Positions 9,378 through 21,887 of a stretch of 39,137 nucleotides of DNA are shown piece after piece. Source of the DNA: a virus (taxonomy: Duplodnaviria > Caudoviricetes). The stretch covers positions 1 through 39,137 of IMG/VR virus record IMGVR_UViG_3300033406_000017, one strand, 5' to 3'. A program made the position numbers and the translations under genes. The notes below the pieces were generated by a model. It saw only the letters and a program-made list of their open reading frames with translations. It was not told where the DNA came from and did no database searches. The number at the start of each line of letters is the position of its first letter. Position 1 is the stretch's first letter.

Positions 9378-9498
9378 ATCGTTCTCCAAAAAGATCCCGC
9401 CAGCCCTACAGGTGCTTCGATACTCAGCCTGTGGCCTGTTCTCGTCACTGTAGAAGCCGGCGGGGTTAAGCCGATTGGATCGGCGAGGGGAGGAAACT

Positions 9499-9582
9499 TG
9501 AAGCGGGTTTGAGGAATCGAACCTCGGCCTATCGGCACGCCTTTAGGTTAGTAACCTAATGCTCTCCATGAGCTAAACCCGC
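9499..9582 (-). tRNA. Atypical tRNA or tRNA-like RNA, anticodon ACT, tRNA-Gly-like body
   Basis: GCGGGTT TA GCTC ATGGA GAGC A TTAGG TT-ACT-AA CCTAA [16-nt variable] CGAGG TTCGATT CCTCA AACCCGC T TCA; 7/7 acceptor and 5/5 anticodon stem, short D loop, no encoded CCA. Confidence 0.6.
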
Positions 9583-9588
9583 ATGTTG

Positions 9589-9663
9589 TGGAGCAGGGCG
9601 CGGGAATCGAACCCGCTTAACTGGAATGGAAATCCAGGCCACAACACAATATGTCAGCCCTGC
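9589..9663 (-). tRNA. tRNA-Gly(TCC) with degenerate D arm
   Basis: GCAGGGC TG ACAT ATTGTGTT GTGG C CTGGA TT-TCC-AT TCCAG TTAA GCGGG TTCGATT CCCGC GCCCTGC T CCA. Confidence 0.75.
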
Positions 9664-9671
9664 GTGTTGAA

Positions 9672-9776
9672 GTTGGTGGTAGGTGCTGATCTCCTACTTT
9701 GGCAACCGCGCACGGATAGCTTGCCTGCCATATCCACGCTCTACGTTTAGCGCATCAGCACTGCGCATACACCAAC
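9672..9776 (-). ncRNA. tRNA-shaped RNA with complementary D and T loops
   Basis: GTTGGTG/CACCAAC closing stem; GCGC-AGTGCTGAT-GCGC arm; GTAGG-AGATCAGCA-CCTAC arm; loops TGCTGAT/ATCAGCA are complementary. Confidence 0.65.
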
Positions 9777-9870
9777 ACGGGAGGCGGCTGTCAAGCTGAC
9801 TAATCAGCAATCTCTCGATTTGTCACAACCGCCTTTCGTGTTCCACCTGCTCTTACCCGGCAAGGGGTTT

Positions 9871-9968
9871 AGGTGTTTGGCAGGAATCGAACCCACTACC
9901 TCGGTCATTAGCTAAAGGAATATTTCACCCTGCCAGCCCGCGATCTAACCAGTGATCTACACCAACAC
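9871..9968 (-). ncRNA. Degenerate tRNA-like RNA with expanded central arm
   Basis: TA GATC ACTGGTTA GATC D arm; GTGGG TTCGATT CCTGC T arm; bulged GGTGTT/AACACC closing stem; no 7-nt anticodon loop. Confidence 0.5.
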
Positions 9969-10100
9969 CAAGGCGGGCCGGGCTTGATTCCGGCTCATCG
10001 CGGTCCCCTAGAAGCACTCGCAGTCTGCTGGCCGATGCACACCTACCGCGAACCCCATCGGTCGTGCGTTTCCTTCAACGCCGCCGCCTTGGTGTTGGTG
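9960..10100 (-). ncRNA. tRNA-like RNA with 17-bp closing stem and large central insert
   Basis: CACCAACACCAAGGCGG/CCGCCTTGGTGTTGGTG perfect IR; GCGTT-GAAGGA-AACGC arm; GCCGG-AATCAAGC-CCGGC arm; internal TCGCGGT/ACCGCGA stem. Confidence 0.55.
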
Positions 10101-10193
10101 CGGGAACTTGGCATCCCGCTCTCCGTCCCGGTTCTCCGGTATAGCCCGATGACTACCTACGGGCGGCACTGCTGACTGCTACTGCGACCAACA
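10093..10193 (-). ncRNA. Highly degenerate tRNA-like RNA
   Basis: TGTTGGT/ACCAACA closing stem stacked on a GCGGGA-TGCCAAGT-TCCCGC T-like arm. Confidence 0.35.
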
Positions 10194-10299
10194 GTGGTGG
10201 AATCTAGCCCTGCGCAGGTTGCTACCGACCAGCCTCACAGGTCCAATGCCTTGGTAATCTGCTTATCTGGCAACTCGCACTAGATTCCACCACTGTTGG
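10188..10299. repeat. 20-bp perfect inverted repeat enclosing 72 nt
   Basis: CCAACAGTGGTGGAATCTAG (10188-10207) / CTAGATTCCACCACTGTTGG (10280-10299). Confidence 0.85.
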
Positions 10300-10374
10300 C
10301 CCCGGTCTATTCCCGAGCGCCAGATGGATACGACCCATCCTCTCCGCGTCATGACCCGCTTCGAGCGTTAGCGA

Positions 10375-11382
10375 CTAGACTTCAACAAAGTTTCCGTTGT
10401 CGTCCAATTGGTAAAACACGCCATCCTTGATTCCGTTTTCTCCTTCGTAAGCAACCGATACGCGATAGCGTTTTTCCGATTCGACCCAGCGCGTCAAAAC
10501 GATGCATCCGTTTTTGCCTACGCTTGCGGTGCAACTTAGCGCAGCAGCGCACGCGAGGCTGGAGTCACCCGAAGCAGCCAACTGGCTGTAGTCACCCGAA
10601 GCAGCCAACTTGCTGTAGTGACCCGAAGCAGCCAACTTGCTGGAGTCACCCGAAGCAGCCAACTGGCTGGAGTGACCCGAAGCAGCCAACTGGCTGGAGT
10701 AACCCGAAGCAGCCAACTGGCTGGAGTCACCCGAAGCAGCCAACTTGCTGTAGTCACCCGAAGCAGCCAACTTGCTGTAGTGACCCGAAGCAGCCAACTT
10801 GCTGGAGTGACCCGAAGCAGCCAACTGGCTGGAGTGACCCGAAGCAGCCAACTGGCTGGAGTCACCCGAAGCAGCCAACTGGCTGGAGTCACCCGAAGCA
10901 GCCAACTGGCTGTAGTCACCCGAAGCAGCCAACTTGCTGTAGTGACCCGAAGCAGCCAACTTGCTGGAGTCACCCGAAGCAGCGGGAGCATCCGACGAAC
11001 AAGCATCGGATATGAACTTGATGGCTGATTTAATGAAGCTTGGAATAGAAAGCTCGGCTTCAATCGTCAGTTTTGCTGATGCGATTTTTGAATCATCGCC
11101 ATGACGCGAAATTGATCCGGATGCCTTGACCGTTGCGAAGCGATTAAGCCGCCCGTCATCGCCGATTAGTGGGTAGTAGTTCAGAACATCGAGCGGGTTT
11201 TCGCAGGAATGGAAGCCGGAGTTACACGCTTTCACGGCGCCTTCATGCTCGAAAGTTTTGCCGATTTCGAACTGATAGCCACGGCATTTCAAGTCTTTGT
11301 CGAAGCCCTTGAATGCAAGCACAGTTTCAACTTGCTGGATTTCGTTGTCGTTATTTTCAACGCCGACCGATTCTTCGTTCAT
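10375..11382 (-). CDS. Phage protein with DUF7666-like N-domain and 9-aa tandem repeats
   Basis: AFKGFDKDLKCRGYQFEIGK...CNSGFHSCENPLDVLNYY; AASGxxSxL repeats; C-terminal GENGIKDGVFYQLDDNGNFVEV. Confidence 0.85.
   Translation of the reverse strand: MNEESVGVENNDNEIQQVETVLAFKGFDKDLKCRGYQFEIGKTFEHEGAVKACNSGFHSCENPLDVLNYYPLIGDDGRLNRFATVKASGSISRHGDDSKIASAKLTIEAELSIPSFIKSAIKFISDACSSDAPAASGDSSKLAASGHYSKLAASGDYSQLAASGDSSQLAASGDSSQLAASGHSSQLAASGHSSKLAASGHYSKLAASGDYSKLAASGDSSQLAASGYSSQLAASGHSSQLAASGDSSKLAASGHYSKLAASGDYSQLAASGDSSLACAAALSCTASVGKNGCIVLTRWVESEKRYRVSVAYEGENGIKDGVFYQLDDNGNFVEV
10558..10983 (-). repeat. Coding 27-bp tandem repeat, ~16 units
   Basis: GCTGCTTCGGGT(G/C/T)ACT(C/A)CAGC(C/A)AGTTG repeated head-to-tail with no spacers. 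Confidence 0.95.
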
Positions 11383-11406: not shown

Positions 11407-11470
11407 CACATCGGAGCAGTCTGGTTACACACACGGCCTGTTCCAGAAGCCGCCAGACCGCTCCGATGTG
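11407..11470 (-). repeat. 18-bp intergenic stem-loop
   Basis: CACATCGGAGCAGTCTGG / CCAGACCGCTCCGATGTG; the single mismatch is a G-U pair on the - strand. Confidence 0.75.
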
Positions 11471-11818: not shown

Positions 11819-11896
11819 CAAATCGAATGAGCCGGTTTTGGTTGTCGACACCGGAACACTTCCTTTCGTAAAAGTTAGTCCGGCTCATTCGATTTG
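11819..11896. repeat. 17-bp perfect intergenic inverted repeat
   Basis: CAAATCGAATGAGCCGG / CCGGCTCATTCGATTTG. Confidence 0.8.
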
Positions 11897-11920: not shown

Positions 11921-12112
11921 CTACCAGGCGCCGATCCAGACGCCGGTTCCATGAACCCAAGCTACCGGAAAAAAAATCGCGCCAGCAATGAGAAAACCCC
12001 ACGAACTGGCTTTGAGGCAAACAACAACATGGGTAATCCAAGCGGCAGCAACCCAAGCCAACAGCGCGATTGCGACAACATACCCGCTGCCTTTTTGATA
12101 ACGGACATTCAT
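11921..12112 (-). CDS. Small membrane protein, first clear gene of the PL operon
   Basis: AAWITHVVVC...WGFLIAGAIFFPVAWVHG.G.W; GGAG SD. Confidence 0.75.
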   Translation of the reverse strand: MNVRYQKGSGYVVAIALLAWVAAAWITHVVVCLKASSWGFLIAGAIFFPVAWVHGTGVWIGAW

Positions 12113-12132
12113 ATTTTCTCCAGTTGGTTAAT

Positions 12133-12274
12133 CACATTGAAGGCGGCTGGCGACTTGCTTAAGGTCGCTAGGTTTTTCGGGCTACATCGTTTCAGGGTTG
12201 CGCCCCTACTTCCATCACTGGCTAATGCTCGTCGTGCCTTACCACGGTCATATAAGCCAGCCGCCTTCAATGTG
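12133..12274. repeat. 19-bp perfect inverted repeat enclosing 104 nt in the PL leader
   Basis: CACATTGAAGGCGGCTGGC / GCCAGCCGCCTTCAATGTG. Confidence 0.8.
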
Positions 12275-12437
12275 CCGCCTGTTGCCAAGCGGCTTGCACA
12301 TCAACTCCCTTGTCTCGTCCTCTGCGTTAAGCACTCGGCATCCGTTCCCATAACGGCGCATCAGAGATGTGGATTTGATGGTTACTTCGATCAACTTGTA
12401 CCGGGCCACGCTGTTCTGTGGATGGGTGCCATCTGGC

Positions 12438-12446
12438 TAAAGAGCG
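12438..12446 (-). promoter_or_regulatory. boxA antitermination element (nutL-like)
   Basis: CGCTCTTTA on the - strand about 115 nt downstream of PL. Confidence 0.55.
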
Positions 12447-12567
12447 GTGCTGCTGATTTGCTACCAACGTCGGCTTGGAGTCTCGGTATCTTGGCTCTCT
12501 CCACCCCTGGCGCCCTGTGTTCCGGTGCGTTACTGGTTGCGGACTGTTGTTTGCTGCGATGGAATGA

Positions 12568-12628
12568 ATTATCCATATATGGCACGGCTATGTCAATACG
12601 TTACGGCAAATAAATTCCAGATATGGAT
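12568..12628 (-). promoter_or_regulatory. PL promoter with two operators
   Basis: TTGACA (12596-12591), 17 nt, GATAAT (12573-12568); operators TCCATATATGGC (12572-12583) and TTCCAGATATGGAT (12615-12628). Confidence 0.85.
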
Positions 12629-12640
12629 TTTACGGGCGAC

Positions 12641-12662
12641 AAAAAACCCGCCGAAGCGGGTT
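12641..12662 (-). terminator. Intrinsic terminator insulating PL from immunity-region transcription
   Basis: AACCCGC-TTCG-GCGGGTTTTTT on the - strand. Confidence 0.85.
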
Positions 12663-12687
12663 GTGTGGTTATGCGTCCTGCTTACAG

Positions 12688-12969
12688 TCAATATGACGGG
12701 CGATATGGGCGCTGATACTGGCCTTCGTTGTTACCTCTTGGCGGGGCATATTCCTGTTGCACTTTGTACGGGTCTCGCGTCCCTTGTTGCCCAGTGTAAG
12801 GATTGGAGTTGCCCTGCGAAGAGTAGTTGTTATACGGGTTCCTGTCCGGTCCTGACTGGTAGTGCGGAGCTACGTACGTGCCGTCTTTGCGGATGTATCC
12901 ATTGTGCAGGTTGTCAGCCAGGACAGACGTTGAGGCCAGTATTGCTGCTGCAATAACTATGTTTTTCAT
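12688..12969 (-). CDS. Small secreted/periplasmic protein in the immunity region
   Basis: Signal peptide MKNIVIAAAILASTSVLA; GYIRKDGTYVAPHY...NN...GNSNPYTGQQGT motif. Confidence 0.75.
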   Translation of the reverse strand: MKNIVIAAAILASTSVLADNLHNGYIRKDGTYVAPHYQSGPDRNPYNNYSSQGNSNPYTGQQGTRDPYKVQQEYAPPRGNNEGQYQRPYRPSY

Positions 12970-13195: not shown

Positions 13196-13351
13196 ATGGG
13201 TAATGACCAGGGAACATCACTGCAGGATATTGTCGATCTTCACCAGAGCGGAGATGCTGTTCGCGTCTATGTCGTCGTGCAGTCAAAAGACGGCGCGCTA
13301 AGTGAATTTCAGTTTGATGCTATTCAGGAGGAAGACCTTTCTTCATCCTAG
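13196..13351 (+). CDS. Small acidic protein convergent with the repressor
   Basis: 51 aa from ATG 13196; upstream TTGCAG-17-CATAAT promoter; 3' end overlaps the repressor 3' end. Confidence 0.45.
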   Translation: MGNDQGTSLQDIVDLHQSGDAVRVYVVVQSKDGALSEFQFDAIQEEDLSSS

Positions 13352-13685
13352 CGAATGCCAGCTTTGAAGAGATGAAGAACGAGGCCTCGCTTTGATCTTT
13401 ATCGTCTAGCTCTCTGAACTTCTGCAGCAGAACGATCTCTGCTGCGCTGAGTCCTCCTGCCTCGCCGGGTGGGCTGACGAACTCAGCAAGCGATAGGCCA
13501 AACGCTTTGGCTATCGCCTCCACGTTGTCAATCGATACATTGACATCGTCAGCAATCTTTATGCGCCTGATCGTGTTCTTACCGACACCGGATTTTTTGC
13601 TGACTTTTTCCAGGTTGTCGAGCGCTGGTGTTACCCGCATTAGGTAATCCAGTCGATCAGCCATCACTTCTTTTGTAGTTTTCAT
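13320..13685 (-). CDS. cI: Prophage repressor (XRE HTH, no peptidase domain)
   Basis: HTH LEKVSKKSGVGKNTIRRIK...VSIDNVEAIAKAFG; divergent from cro across shared operators. Confidence 0.8.
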   Translation of the reverse strand: MKTTKEVMADRLDYLMRVTPALDNLEKVSKKSGVGKNTIRRIKIADDVNVSIDNVEAIAKAFGLSLAEFVSPPGEAGGLSAAEIVLLQKFRELDDKDQSEASFFISSKLAFARMKKGLPPE

Positions 13686-20463: not shown

Positions 20464-20489
20464 GTGACTATCTATTGATGGAGGTCGCT

Positions 20490-21887
20490 ATGCTGCGCCA
20501 CGCAACGTACAAACGTAACGAGAAGGACTTTGCAACAAAGGTTATCGAGGATGATTCGACTGGCGATGTGACGCTATACGTAGGTGATAATCCGGTTGCT
20601 ACAGCGGATGTTGATGGTGTTTCAGGTGGTGTAGAAATTTACGCTGGAACACAGAAACTAGGACCAATGAAGCGCAGAATTGCTCGTTCGCTGATCGGTT
20701 CGCGCTCAGTGTTCCACGGCGCAGGCTTTACAGCTATTGGCGCGGCATACACGATTGCACATGAAATCGAAGCCCCGGCTCCGTTTGACTTTGTGCGCGC
20801 AATCATTTCAAACGGCGGCGCATCTGCCTATACGCTGGGTAATATCAAGTTCGCTTCTGCAGCCAACTTCGGTGACGATGGTGCTGCGCTGACCTGGGTA
20901 CAGGGTTCGTTTTCGGCGAATGGCTTGAAAAGCATGCCGCCGGCTACCGCGCAGACGCCGACATCGTTTTCAATTCCGGCCAAACAGTCAGGCTCTGGCT
21001 CCAATGTCGTGCCGGGTATCGCCCTGTCTGACTGGGCGCAGGTATCAAGCCTTGATCGCGCTGATGGTGGGAAAAATCACATCATCCAGTGCCGAGTGGC
21101 CTTGCCATCCGGCGCAAACGTTATCTCTGTATCTGGCGCAAACGAAGCAGCGGTGTTCGATGCCCAGGCGGCTGCATATTGCCTTCGCTTCCGGTCATCG
21201 CTGGCGGCAGGAGATAACGTAACCACCATCGCCGCGCAGGCGGCAATTGCAAGCAATGGCTGGTTTGGAATTCAAGGTATCGAATTCCTGCACCGCTCGG
21301 CTGCCGTGCAGATCAGCGAGTTCGGAGACTCGACGCAGCGCGGCCAAGGCTGGACTGACCAGAACACTGGGCACGTATCGCCAGGGTTCCTCGCTCAAGC
21401 ATCAATGAGTTCGCAGAGCAACCCGCTGTTTTACGCCAATCACTGTGTTTCCGGTCAAACGTCAGCCGCTTCCAGGGCTACGGCGAAGTGGCACATTACC
21501 AATGCAAATATCGATGTCGCTGTTATCCCGTCGTGGTCGGCAAACGACACCGGTTCAGCAATCCTGTCGCAGTGGCCTGATATTCTTGCGACGGTCAATT
21601 ACGCGCTGTCGCTCGGTGTTATTCCTGTTGTCGTAAGCGCCTTACCTGAATACACCCTGACCTTGGCACAAGACAACGAGCGCAAGACGTTGAACGCTCG
21701 ACTGCTCGCGCTTCGCACAATTGGAGCGCTAGTGATTGACCGCGATTCTGTCATTACGGACAACGGCGCGCCTGCCCGCCAGATCGCTGCTCTGACAAAT
21801 GAAGGTCGCCATCCAAATGCTGCCGGATATCAGTTGATCAAGAACCAGTACATCGACGTGTTTGGACAGATTCAGGCCGCAGCCTGA
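20490..21887 (+). CDS. SGNH/GDSL hydrolase-domain protein
   Basis: Block I FGDS; block II VSGQTS; block III SANDT; block V EGRHPNAAGY; beta-rich N-terminal domain; GGAGG SD before ATG 20490. Confidence 0.8.
   Translation: MLRHATYKRNEKDFATKVIEDDSTGDVTLYVGDNPVATADVDGVSGGVEIYAGTQKLGPMKRRIARSLIGSRSVFHGAGFTAIGAAYTIAHEIEAPAPFDFVRAIISNGGASAYTLGNIKFASAANFGDDGAALTWVQGSFSANGLKSMPPATAQTPTSFSIPAKQSGSGSNVVPGIALSDWAQVSSLDRADGGKNHIIQCRVALPSGANVISVSGANEAAVFDAQAAAYCLRFRSSLAAGDNVTTIAAQAAIASNGWFGIQGIEFLHRSAAVQISEFGDSTQRGQGWTDQNTGHVSPGFLAQASMSSQSNPLFYANHCVSGQTSAASRATAKWHITNANIDVAVIPSWSANDTGSAILSQWPDILATVNYALSLGVIPVVVSALPEYTLTLAQDNERKTLNARLLALRTIGALVIDRDSVITDNGAPARQIAALTNEGRHPNAAGYQLIKNQYIDVFGQIQAAA

Follow-up and report, generated by a model that had tools for sequence, protein, structure and literature searches.

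Results

An array of tRNA-shaped units and long hairpins behind the early left promoter

The DNA analyzed here, referred to as the window, is a complete 39-kb virus record (IMG/VR IMGVR_UViG_3300033406_000017; 39,137 nucleotides) with lambdoid gene order. It encodes integrase, excisionase, SSB, exonuclease and Erf along with replication, nin, packaging and lysis genes, and its repressor gene (positions 13320-13685) faces a Cro-like gene. No cultured phage is close, the major capsid protein being at most 29% identical to any of theirs. A gene of 470 amino acids with a weak match to GDSL esterases lies between terminase and portal (20475-21887).

On the minus strand, a promoter with 11 of 12 consensus bases in its -35 and -10 elements (12568..12596) lies behind a terminator (12645-12662). 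The palindrome CCANATNTGG flanks this promoter (12573 and 12617) and recurs in the cI-cro gap (13712 and 13736), giving four matches to the operator motif against 0.46 expected. With two copies of the palindrome at the promoter and two more between repressor and cro, this promoter is most likely PL. The array described below lies downstream of it, and the placement of the array in the early PL transcript by a previous, sequence-only reading of this DNA is thus borne out. The array would accordingly be expressed early in lytic development and be silent in the lysogen. The stretch 12641-12700 gave a weak RsmX-like Rfam match (E 0.045), mostly to the terminator upstream of PL. The PL leader itself (12112-12560, ∼450 nt) holds more folded stretches and, as to open reading frames, short unassigned ones only, one of the folded stretches resembles the start of unit B by eye, with an alignment that is not significant.

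The sequence-only reading had described an ORF-free cassette at 9396..10370, tiled with six tRNA-shaped units. We recovered all six on the minus strand (9499-9582, 9589-9663, 9672-9776, 9871-9968, 9960-10100 and 10093-10193; below, units G, F, E, D, C and B), together with four hairpins, and the open reading frames overlapping the interval are just 50 to 85 aa long. The array is real, but its bounds were drawn too narrowly, as it extends upstream to ∼12274, beyond the gene that adjoins it upstream (10375..11382, minus strand), which encodes a DUF7666 protein with 9-residue repeats. Three long hairpins lie in this upstream part, all on the minus strand: one with a 19-bp perfect stem and a 104-nt insert (12133..12274; z = -5.1, no Rfam match at cut-off), one with a 17-bp perfect stem and a 44-nt insert (11819..11896; z = -7.0) and one with an 18-bp stem and a 28-nt insert (11407..11470; z = -7.1). 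The stem of the last resembles, by eye, the outer stems around family E units in loci L016 and L029. Within the original interval, hairpin A (10188..10299, minus strand; ∼22-bp stem, 68-nt insert, z = -7.0) reaches with its 3' arm into the 5' acceptor strand of unit B, and hairpin H (9774..9842, minus strand; two small inner hairpins, z = -6.5) reaches with its 3' end into that of unit E. A long hairpin with a 35-nt insert closes the array (9396..9464, minus strand; z = -5.1); a U-run follows it, and it is possibly also a terminator. The long hairpins are a second type of carrier for inserts, which the sequence-only reading had missed.

Twelve stacked pairs from a directly joined acceptor and T stem, our strict test, were found in units B, C, E, F and G, compared to a mean of 0.57 units in 300 dinucleotide shuffles (five or more in 1 of 300) and to 0 to 3 units per 975-nt tile across the window. 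In fold energy the hairpins stand well apart from shuffles (z about -5.1 to -7.1), as do units C, F and G (z -3.3 to -5.0) and B (z -2.3), while energy alone does not set units D and E apart from chance (z -0.6 and -0.8). All five inverted repeats of at least 17 bp and at least 89% complementarity in the genome lie within the PL transcript, three of them upstream of the originally flagged interval. Adjoining elements have strands in common (hairpin A with B, B with C, C with D, hairpin H with E); neighboring units therefore cannot all fold fully at the same time. A blastn search of the whole array against phages returned matches of 27 to 52 nt only, none of them to T4.

Two units are genuine tRNA genes

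At most four of the six units carry variable payloads as had been proposed; those at 9499-9582 and 9589-9663 are plain tRNA genes. The check with ARAGORN and Rfam that had been suggested for the array identified both as tRNAs (RF00005; cut-off, 29 bits). Unit F (9589..9663, minus strand; 46.1 bits) is a tRNA-Gly(UCC) with an encoded CCA and a divergent D arm. Unit G (9499..9582, minus strand; 54.4 bits) is a class II tRNA with anticodon ACU (Ser), a long variable arm and no encoded CCA. Units B, C, D and E have no anticodon stem-loop and stand apart from the phage tRNA genes in this respect.

Codon compensation may apply to the Gly-UCC tRNA, whose codon GGA makes up 129 of 601 Gly codons. For the Ser-ACU tRNA we considered it and rejected it, since AGU is the rarest Ser codon (20 of 545 in 24 phage genes). 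A pattern search for similar Ser-ACU tRNA genes returned chance matches only. The wobble base of unit G is A, as in a tRNA of phage IME11 with anticodon AAU, and such a wobble-A tRNA could evade anticodon nucleases. The earlier suggestion that the array supplies decoys for anticodon nucleases fits these two tRNAs and a few inserts made of tRNA fragments (see below), but most inserts are not anticodon stem-loops.

Unit E belongs to a widespread family of tRNA-like shells

Unit E (9668..9777, minus strand) consists of a 7-bp acceptor, D and T arms and a 52-nt insert; its D loop is complementary to its T loop over 6 nt, compared to 5 nt in other members. A search of IMG/VR with a 22-base pattern taken from these two loops found at least 119 loci (∼220 estimated), and all 119 among the matches listed are built alike: the first acceptor strand leads through a 3-nt linker into the D arm, and the insert, the T arm and the second acceptor strand follow. 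Acceptor pairs 1 to 7 are paired in 85 to 97 of the 100 distinct units listed, compared to 44 to 91 in column shuffles, with frequent double changes, and pairing falls to chance level by pair 10. In a set of 41 diverse members, each of the seven acceptor pairs shows changes in both partners, a covariation score that 0 of 500 shuffles reached. The loop-loop pairing is nearly invariant, is partly fixed by the search pattern and is thus poorly tested; locus L190 swaps a flanking pair. A model built from 41 other loci, with the window left out, recovered unit E at 64.6 bits (E 2e-17), the next hit in the window scoring 12.0.

Family E goes unannotated in HK620, where it follows the late promoter and precedes the lysis genes, in a P1 isolate, and in IME11, where it has tRNAs as neighbors. 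A genome scan gave 103 matches, of which 75 failed the structure filter and L332 was left out by eye; the 27 kept come nearly all from Alpha-, Beta- and Gammaproteobacteria. The Sakai chromosome gave no E match under strict filters. Family E loci often lie behind a late promoter and often have tRNAs nearby, and in front of enterobacterial units there is often a long hairpin that has its own variable insert and overlaps the acceptor, the same layout as hairpin A with unit B and hairpin H with unit E. In one array (L061:1-800), two E units carry different inserts; the hairpin in front of each is the same, and three tRNAs come after them.

Several related structures were seen in other phages and prophages. 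A sister shell whose D and T loops are shorter separates dicF from dicB both in the K-12 Qin prophage (L280:13456-13584) and in the P1 isolate (L156:2776-2901); its score with the E model is weak (17 to 18 bits). Lambda carries, between the late terminator and S, a long-stem hairpin and an acceptor-like stem around a different core (L155:2444-2600), near the reported LPR2 RNA. The arrays of P1, HK620 and IME11 contain a short frame that starts with Ala-Asn-Asp/Glu and ends with Ala-stop (L156:1600-1680, L157:2250-2350 and L158:2270-2360), which we take to resemble a tmRNA tag; no such module was seen in the array of the window. Two loci (L087 and L158:2700-2780) hold 63-nt tRNA-like genes that have no anticodon arm or D arm.

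Unit C belongs to a second family with a different shell

In unit C (9960..10100, minus strand), the 7-bp acceptor (10090-9970) is lengthened to 17 perfect pairs; its D arm has a GAAGGA loop, its insert measures ∼71 nt and its T arm has a AAUCAAGC loop. A second pattern search of IMG/VR found at least 119 loci (∼210 estimated); the D motif is present in 100 matches among the 119 loci listed, and some of the rest are chance matches in coding sequence. The 92 distinct units listed share a shell distinct from that of family E; its D loop contains GG, and its T loop is 8 nt long. Acceptor pairs 1 to 7 are paired in 82 to 92 of these 92 units, compared to 35 to 87 in column shuffles. All seven again show changes in both partners (0 of 500 shuffles), and the D stem covaries as well. 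The closing stem is often longer than seven pairs, with pair 10 paired in 57 of 92 units against 39. A model from 45 other loci recovered unit C (9966-10091) at 68 bits (E 7e-15), with the next hit in the window at 11.0. The proposed test of a conserved scaffold with variable payload, covariation across prophage and phage loci, thus came out positive for both E and C. Members of alignments A1 and A2 were admitted if they had five or more of the seven acceptor pairs; the pairing counts over 100 E and 92 C units were unfiltered.

Family E was found near family C in 6 of 93 C loci. As with units C and D in the window, the C stem overlaps the acceptor of the next unit in L053 and L190. The CCA is encoded at its canonical place in 12 of 100 E units and 1 of 92 C units listed. 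That the units are new to Rfam held in part: B, C and E do not match the tRNA model at E 10 and D stays below its cut-off, but F and G belong to the known tRNA family. Unit C matched a riboswitch at E 5.8 only, and no riboswitch or ribozyme family reached its cut-off.

Units B and D and module A0

Unit B (10090..10193, minus strand) is tRNA shaped, with 6 + 6 stacked pairs, noncanonical loops and a terminal ACCA. Neither pattern nor model searches found relatives of it, the E and C models included; L400, the sole full design among 45 distinct matches to the B pattern, was rejected as a relative, being identical to the window. Unit D (9871..9967, minus strand) combines canonical D and T arms with ∼43 nt in place of the anticodon arm. 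Its acceptor is imperfect, a mismatch that excludes it under the strict test, and it scores 22.7 bits with the Rfam tRNA model (E 0.057), below cut-off. A pattern search for D gave chance matches only and the E and C models miss it, while its design, a canonical tRNA shell with a long insert, also occurs in loci L182 and L096. B and D fit the shell design without having relatives of their own, and we treat them as unproven members that may belong to it.

Module A0 (10301..10370, minus strand) ends in a recurring phage hairpin motif (at 10301-10322), in which UGGCG is followed by a stem of 5 bp that closes a GAAUAGA loop; ∼26 of 31 listed hairpins of this kind look alike by eye. A0 has no Rfam match, and its pattern search gave only chance matches. 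The A0 hairpin at 10319-10340 is complementary to the PL leader at 12420-12437 in two blocks of 9 and 8 nt, and this duplex is the best of 1205 windows by a margin of only 0.7 kcal/mol. Sites complementary to A0 in the transcript amount to five overlapping 7-mers, compared to 0.31 expected.

Inserts are diverse, folded and exchanged between shells

Among the matches listed, 122 E inserts fall into 93 clusters and 91 C inserts into 81. The eight inserts of the window have no sequence relative among 230 others, and none of them joins a cluster. Nested folding of inserts is barely better than that of shuffles (mean z -0.6 for E and -0.3 for C). Pseudoknot potential, assessed on one insert per cluster of up to 80 nt, was found in 36 of 92 E inserts compared to 19% of shuffles and in 48 of 69 C inserts compared to 42%. 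Two clusters show compensatory double changes in both pseudoknot stems. In alignments A3 and A4, the structures were drawn from the same sequences and are favored over slid controls, and the misaligned rows (L321, L354 and the window) count against the structure. Selection on insert structure is seen in the sampled clusters, to which the window's own inserts do not belong. An H-type pseudoknot is predicted for the insert of unit E (0 of 15 shuffles), a prediction made for this insert without covariation.

Inserts are also exchanged between slots. A single acceptor 9-mer carries 20 insert clusters, and different acceptors accompany 9 of the 13 multimember clusters of family E and 5 of the 9 of family C, part of which point changes could explain. 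Raw reads of a related prophage (run X24; 48 of them joining 402 to 491) show the slot of locus L016 with its E core replaced by what looks like a canonical D arm of a tRNA. The inserts of L015 and L234 consist of the D and T arms of tRNAs and have no anticodon.

The inserts matched no antitoxin, CRISPR repeat or other Rfam family, tRNA fragments excepted, and three inserts searched against plasmids gave nothing significant, with no match below E 1. The proposal that they serve as antisense guides against the phage's own genes was not supported, as the window's inserts show no excess complementarity to the rest of the phage. Complementarity to their own flanks was equally at the level of chance (8.3 against 8.1 nt for 68 E inserts; 8.1 against 8.1 nt for 53 C inserts). 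Nor did a fixed partner gene emerge: 67 downstream ORFs are scattered in kind, including 10 lysis and 3 terminase genes. A tRNA was nearby in 0 of 35 relatives of the DUF7666 gene, which is thus not a fixed partner of the array, and in 1 of 39 scanned relatives (of 64) of the downstream flanking gene, with an E or C motif upstream in 0 of 64.

The locus of a relative occurs in 16 RNA runs, among 20 runs from 7 studies, which reveal neither the strand nor the ends of an RNA. Of four raw RNA runs, one (X24) contained reads of a related locus; these showed no clear discrete ends, in a run that seems unstranded and in which DNA is not excluded. Contig ends were considered as RNA ends and rejected; they reflect branching between related prophages.

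Discussion

Relation to known RNAs

The antisense RNAs P1 C4 (RF01695), P4 CI and Qin DicF are processed from phage or prophage polycistrons, and a sister shell lies beside dicF. However, the array has no C4 or DicF match in Rfam, units B to E have no paired target sites above shuffles, and no ant- or icd-like gene was recognized downstream.

The closest known kind of RNA to the shells is the skipping-rope type of tRNA mimic, together with the T4 species 1 and 2 RNAs. A 5- to 8-bp acceptor directly joined to a T-like stem-loop, as in the tLRNA class, was found in B, C and E, with covariation for C and E. In skipping-rope (tLRNA-1), a 7-bp acceptor is likewise joined directly to a 5-bp T stem with a variable region replacing the anticodon arm, and the portion of its description covered here includes Watson-Crick pairing between D and T loops, as predicted for family E. 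Its described member is, however, a stand-alone Clostridioides difficile transcript, and that same portion mentions neither phages, nor arrays, nor any exchange of long folded inserts. The RF02924 model matched nothing in the window or in five phage records, and the 14 control genomes contained no true positive control for it. T4 species 1 and 2 (rnaC and rnaD) are stable non-tRNA RNAs of 119 to 139 nt within a phage tRNA cluster, and rnaC ends in a canonical T arm; in contrast to families E and C, they are single fixed genes rather than variable-insert families as far as tested, and the E and C models do not match them (L282).

A precedent for the inserts is the pseudo-ToxI RNA of PhiTE, a phage pseudoknot RNA that blocks a defense toxin by mimicry, described in the covered part of PMC3475682 as tandem 36-nt repeats without a tRNA shell. 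The window's inserts differ from it in being single copy, with no tandem repeats and no Rfam antitoxin match.

Our literature search found no description of the two families, and six motif strings matched no paper. It partly covered two large catalogues of candidate RNAs, Fremin 2023 (PMC10690425) and Weinberg 2017 (PMC5737381), either of which may list the motifs; the portion of the former that was searched gave no motif match.

A cassette of exchangeable folded RNAs

The locus is real, selected and modular; it is of the tRNA-mimic kind, with exchangeable inserts for which our search found no description. We favor, with a probability of roughly 45%, a modular early-left RNA cassette, in which host-processed shells and hairpins would carry exchangeable folded inserts whose shape would make them decoys or ligands. 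Long stems are substrates of RNase III, which would cleave them here, and the ends would be trimmed at the 3' side. RNase P, which recognizes the stacked acceptor/T helix according to the part of the tLRNA preprint covered, would cut the shells at the acceptor 5' end. The inserts would be released as stable small RNAs, with the shells serving as processing and stability devices; the 12-pair helix with its predicted elbow is exactly what selection keeps in both families, and the CCA is mostly unencoded. Action by shape is favored over base pairing because inserts keep their fold over their sequence and have no complementarity to the phage. The released inserts may act on RNA-binding proteins of the host, among which toxins and nucleases directed against phages are the most plausible. 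Insert diversity and exchange fit an arms race, and together with action by shape and the pseudo-ToxI precedent they are what this last step draws on, with no target matched; the identity of the putative decoy targets is the least supported part of the explanation.

Alternatively, the products of the shells might be small RNAs that work by base pairing, either regulating mRNAs of host or phage or sponging small RNAs of the host, as C4, CI, DicF and the EHEC anti-sRNAs do. In the K-12 Qin prophage, dicF is immediately followed by the sister shell, and the PL leader is weakly complementary to A0. Family E often sits behind the late promoter, which is also the site of anti-sRNAs with variable ends (PMC4104026, in the part covered) and, according to the covered part of bioRxiv 2024.10.31.621285, of lambda LPR2. 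Yet related inserts change sequence while keeping structure, complementarity of inserts to phage or flanks is not in excess and no C4 match was found, so that we consider this account unlikely, if the most serious competitor in kind to action by shape. That the units are cis elements which cut, stabilize or antiterminate the long early mRNA, the inserts being secondary, would agree with their location in leaders and gaps of strong lytic transcripts, and the overlapping stems could be folding switches. A processing site, however, needs no pseudoknotted insert of 35 to 110 nt, and neither the ∼170 insert clusters nor the two E copies with different inserts in the L061 array are explained by it; we regard it as rather improbable.

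Compact pseudoknots and conserved single-stranded cores would also suit aptamers or small ribozymes, such as sponges for nucleotide alarm signals, but with the riboswitch and ribozyme families below cut-off and the match of unit C at E 5.8, we give this idea little credence. Decay was the alternative raised at the outset, with the units as functionless pseudo-tRNAs or recombination relics in a tRNA hotspot. It would account for B and D, which are without relatives and of which D has an imperfect acceptor, and for inserts elsewhere that are tRNA fragments (L015 and L234). The strong covariation and near-invariant loops of two families across Alpha-, Beta- and Gammaproteobacteria, and structured inserts with compensatory changes, speak against it. 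The covariation refutes the pseudo-tRNA reading for families C and E, B and D excepted, and for the locus as a whole decay is very improbable.

Extended from this phage to proteobacterial phages in general, the cassette of shape-acting inserts would become an RNA-cargo system in which several independent shells, both tRNA mimics and hairpins, would be processed by the host and serve as slots for the expression of hundreds of unrelated folded RNAs; traded by recombination, these would neutralize defenses by mimicry, comparable to hotspots of anti-defense proteins; this wider claim is tentative and, in our view, doubtful as it stands. HK620, the P1 isolate and IME11 carry unannotated family E members, which makes the proposal directly testable. 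The shells are natural counterparts of the tRNA scaffolds used for RNA expression in bacteria. If the inserts have a function, a large class of RNA effectors, as yet unread, would reside in phage tRNA clusters and seemingly "empty" leaders; this would bear on why phages keep tRNA-like genes and on how they counter RNA-based defenses.
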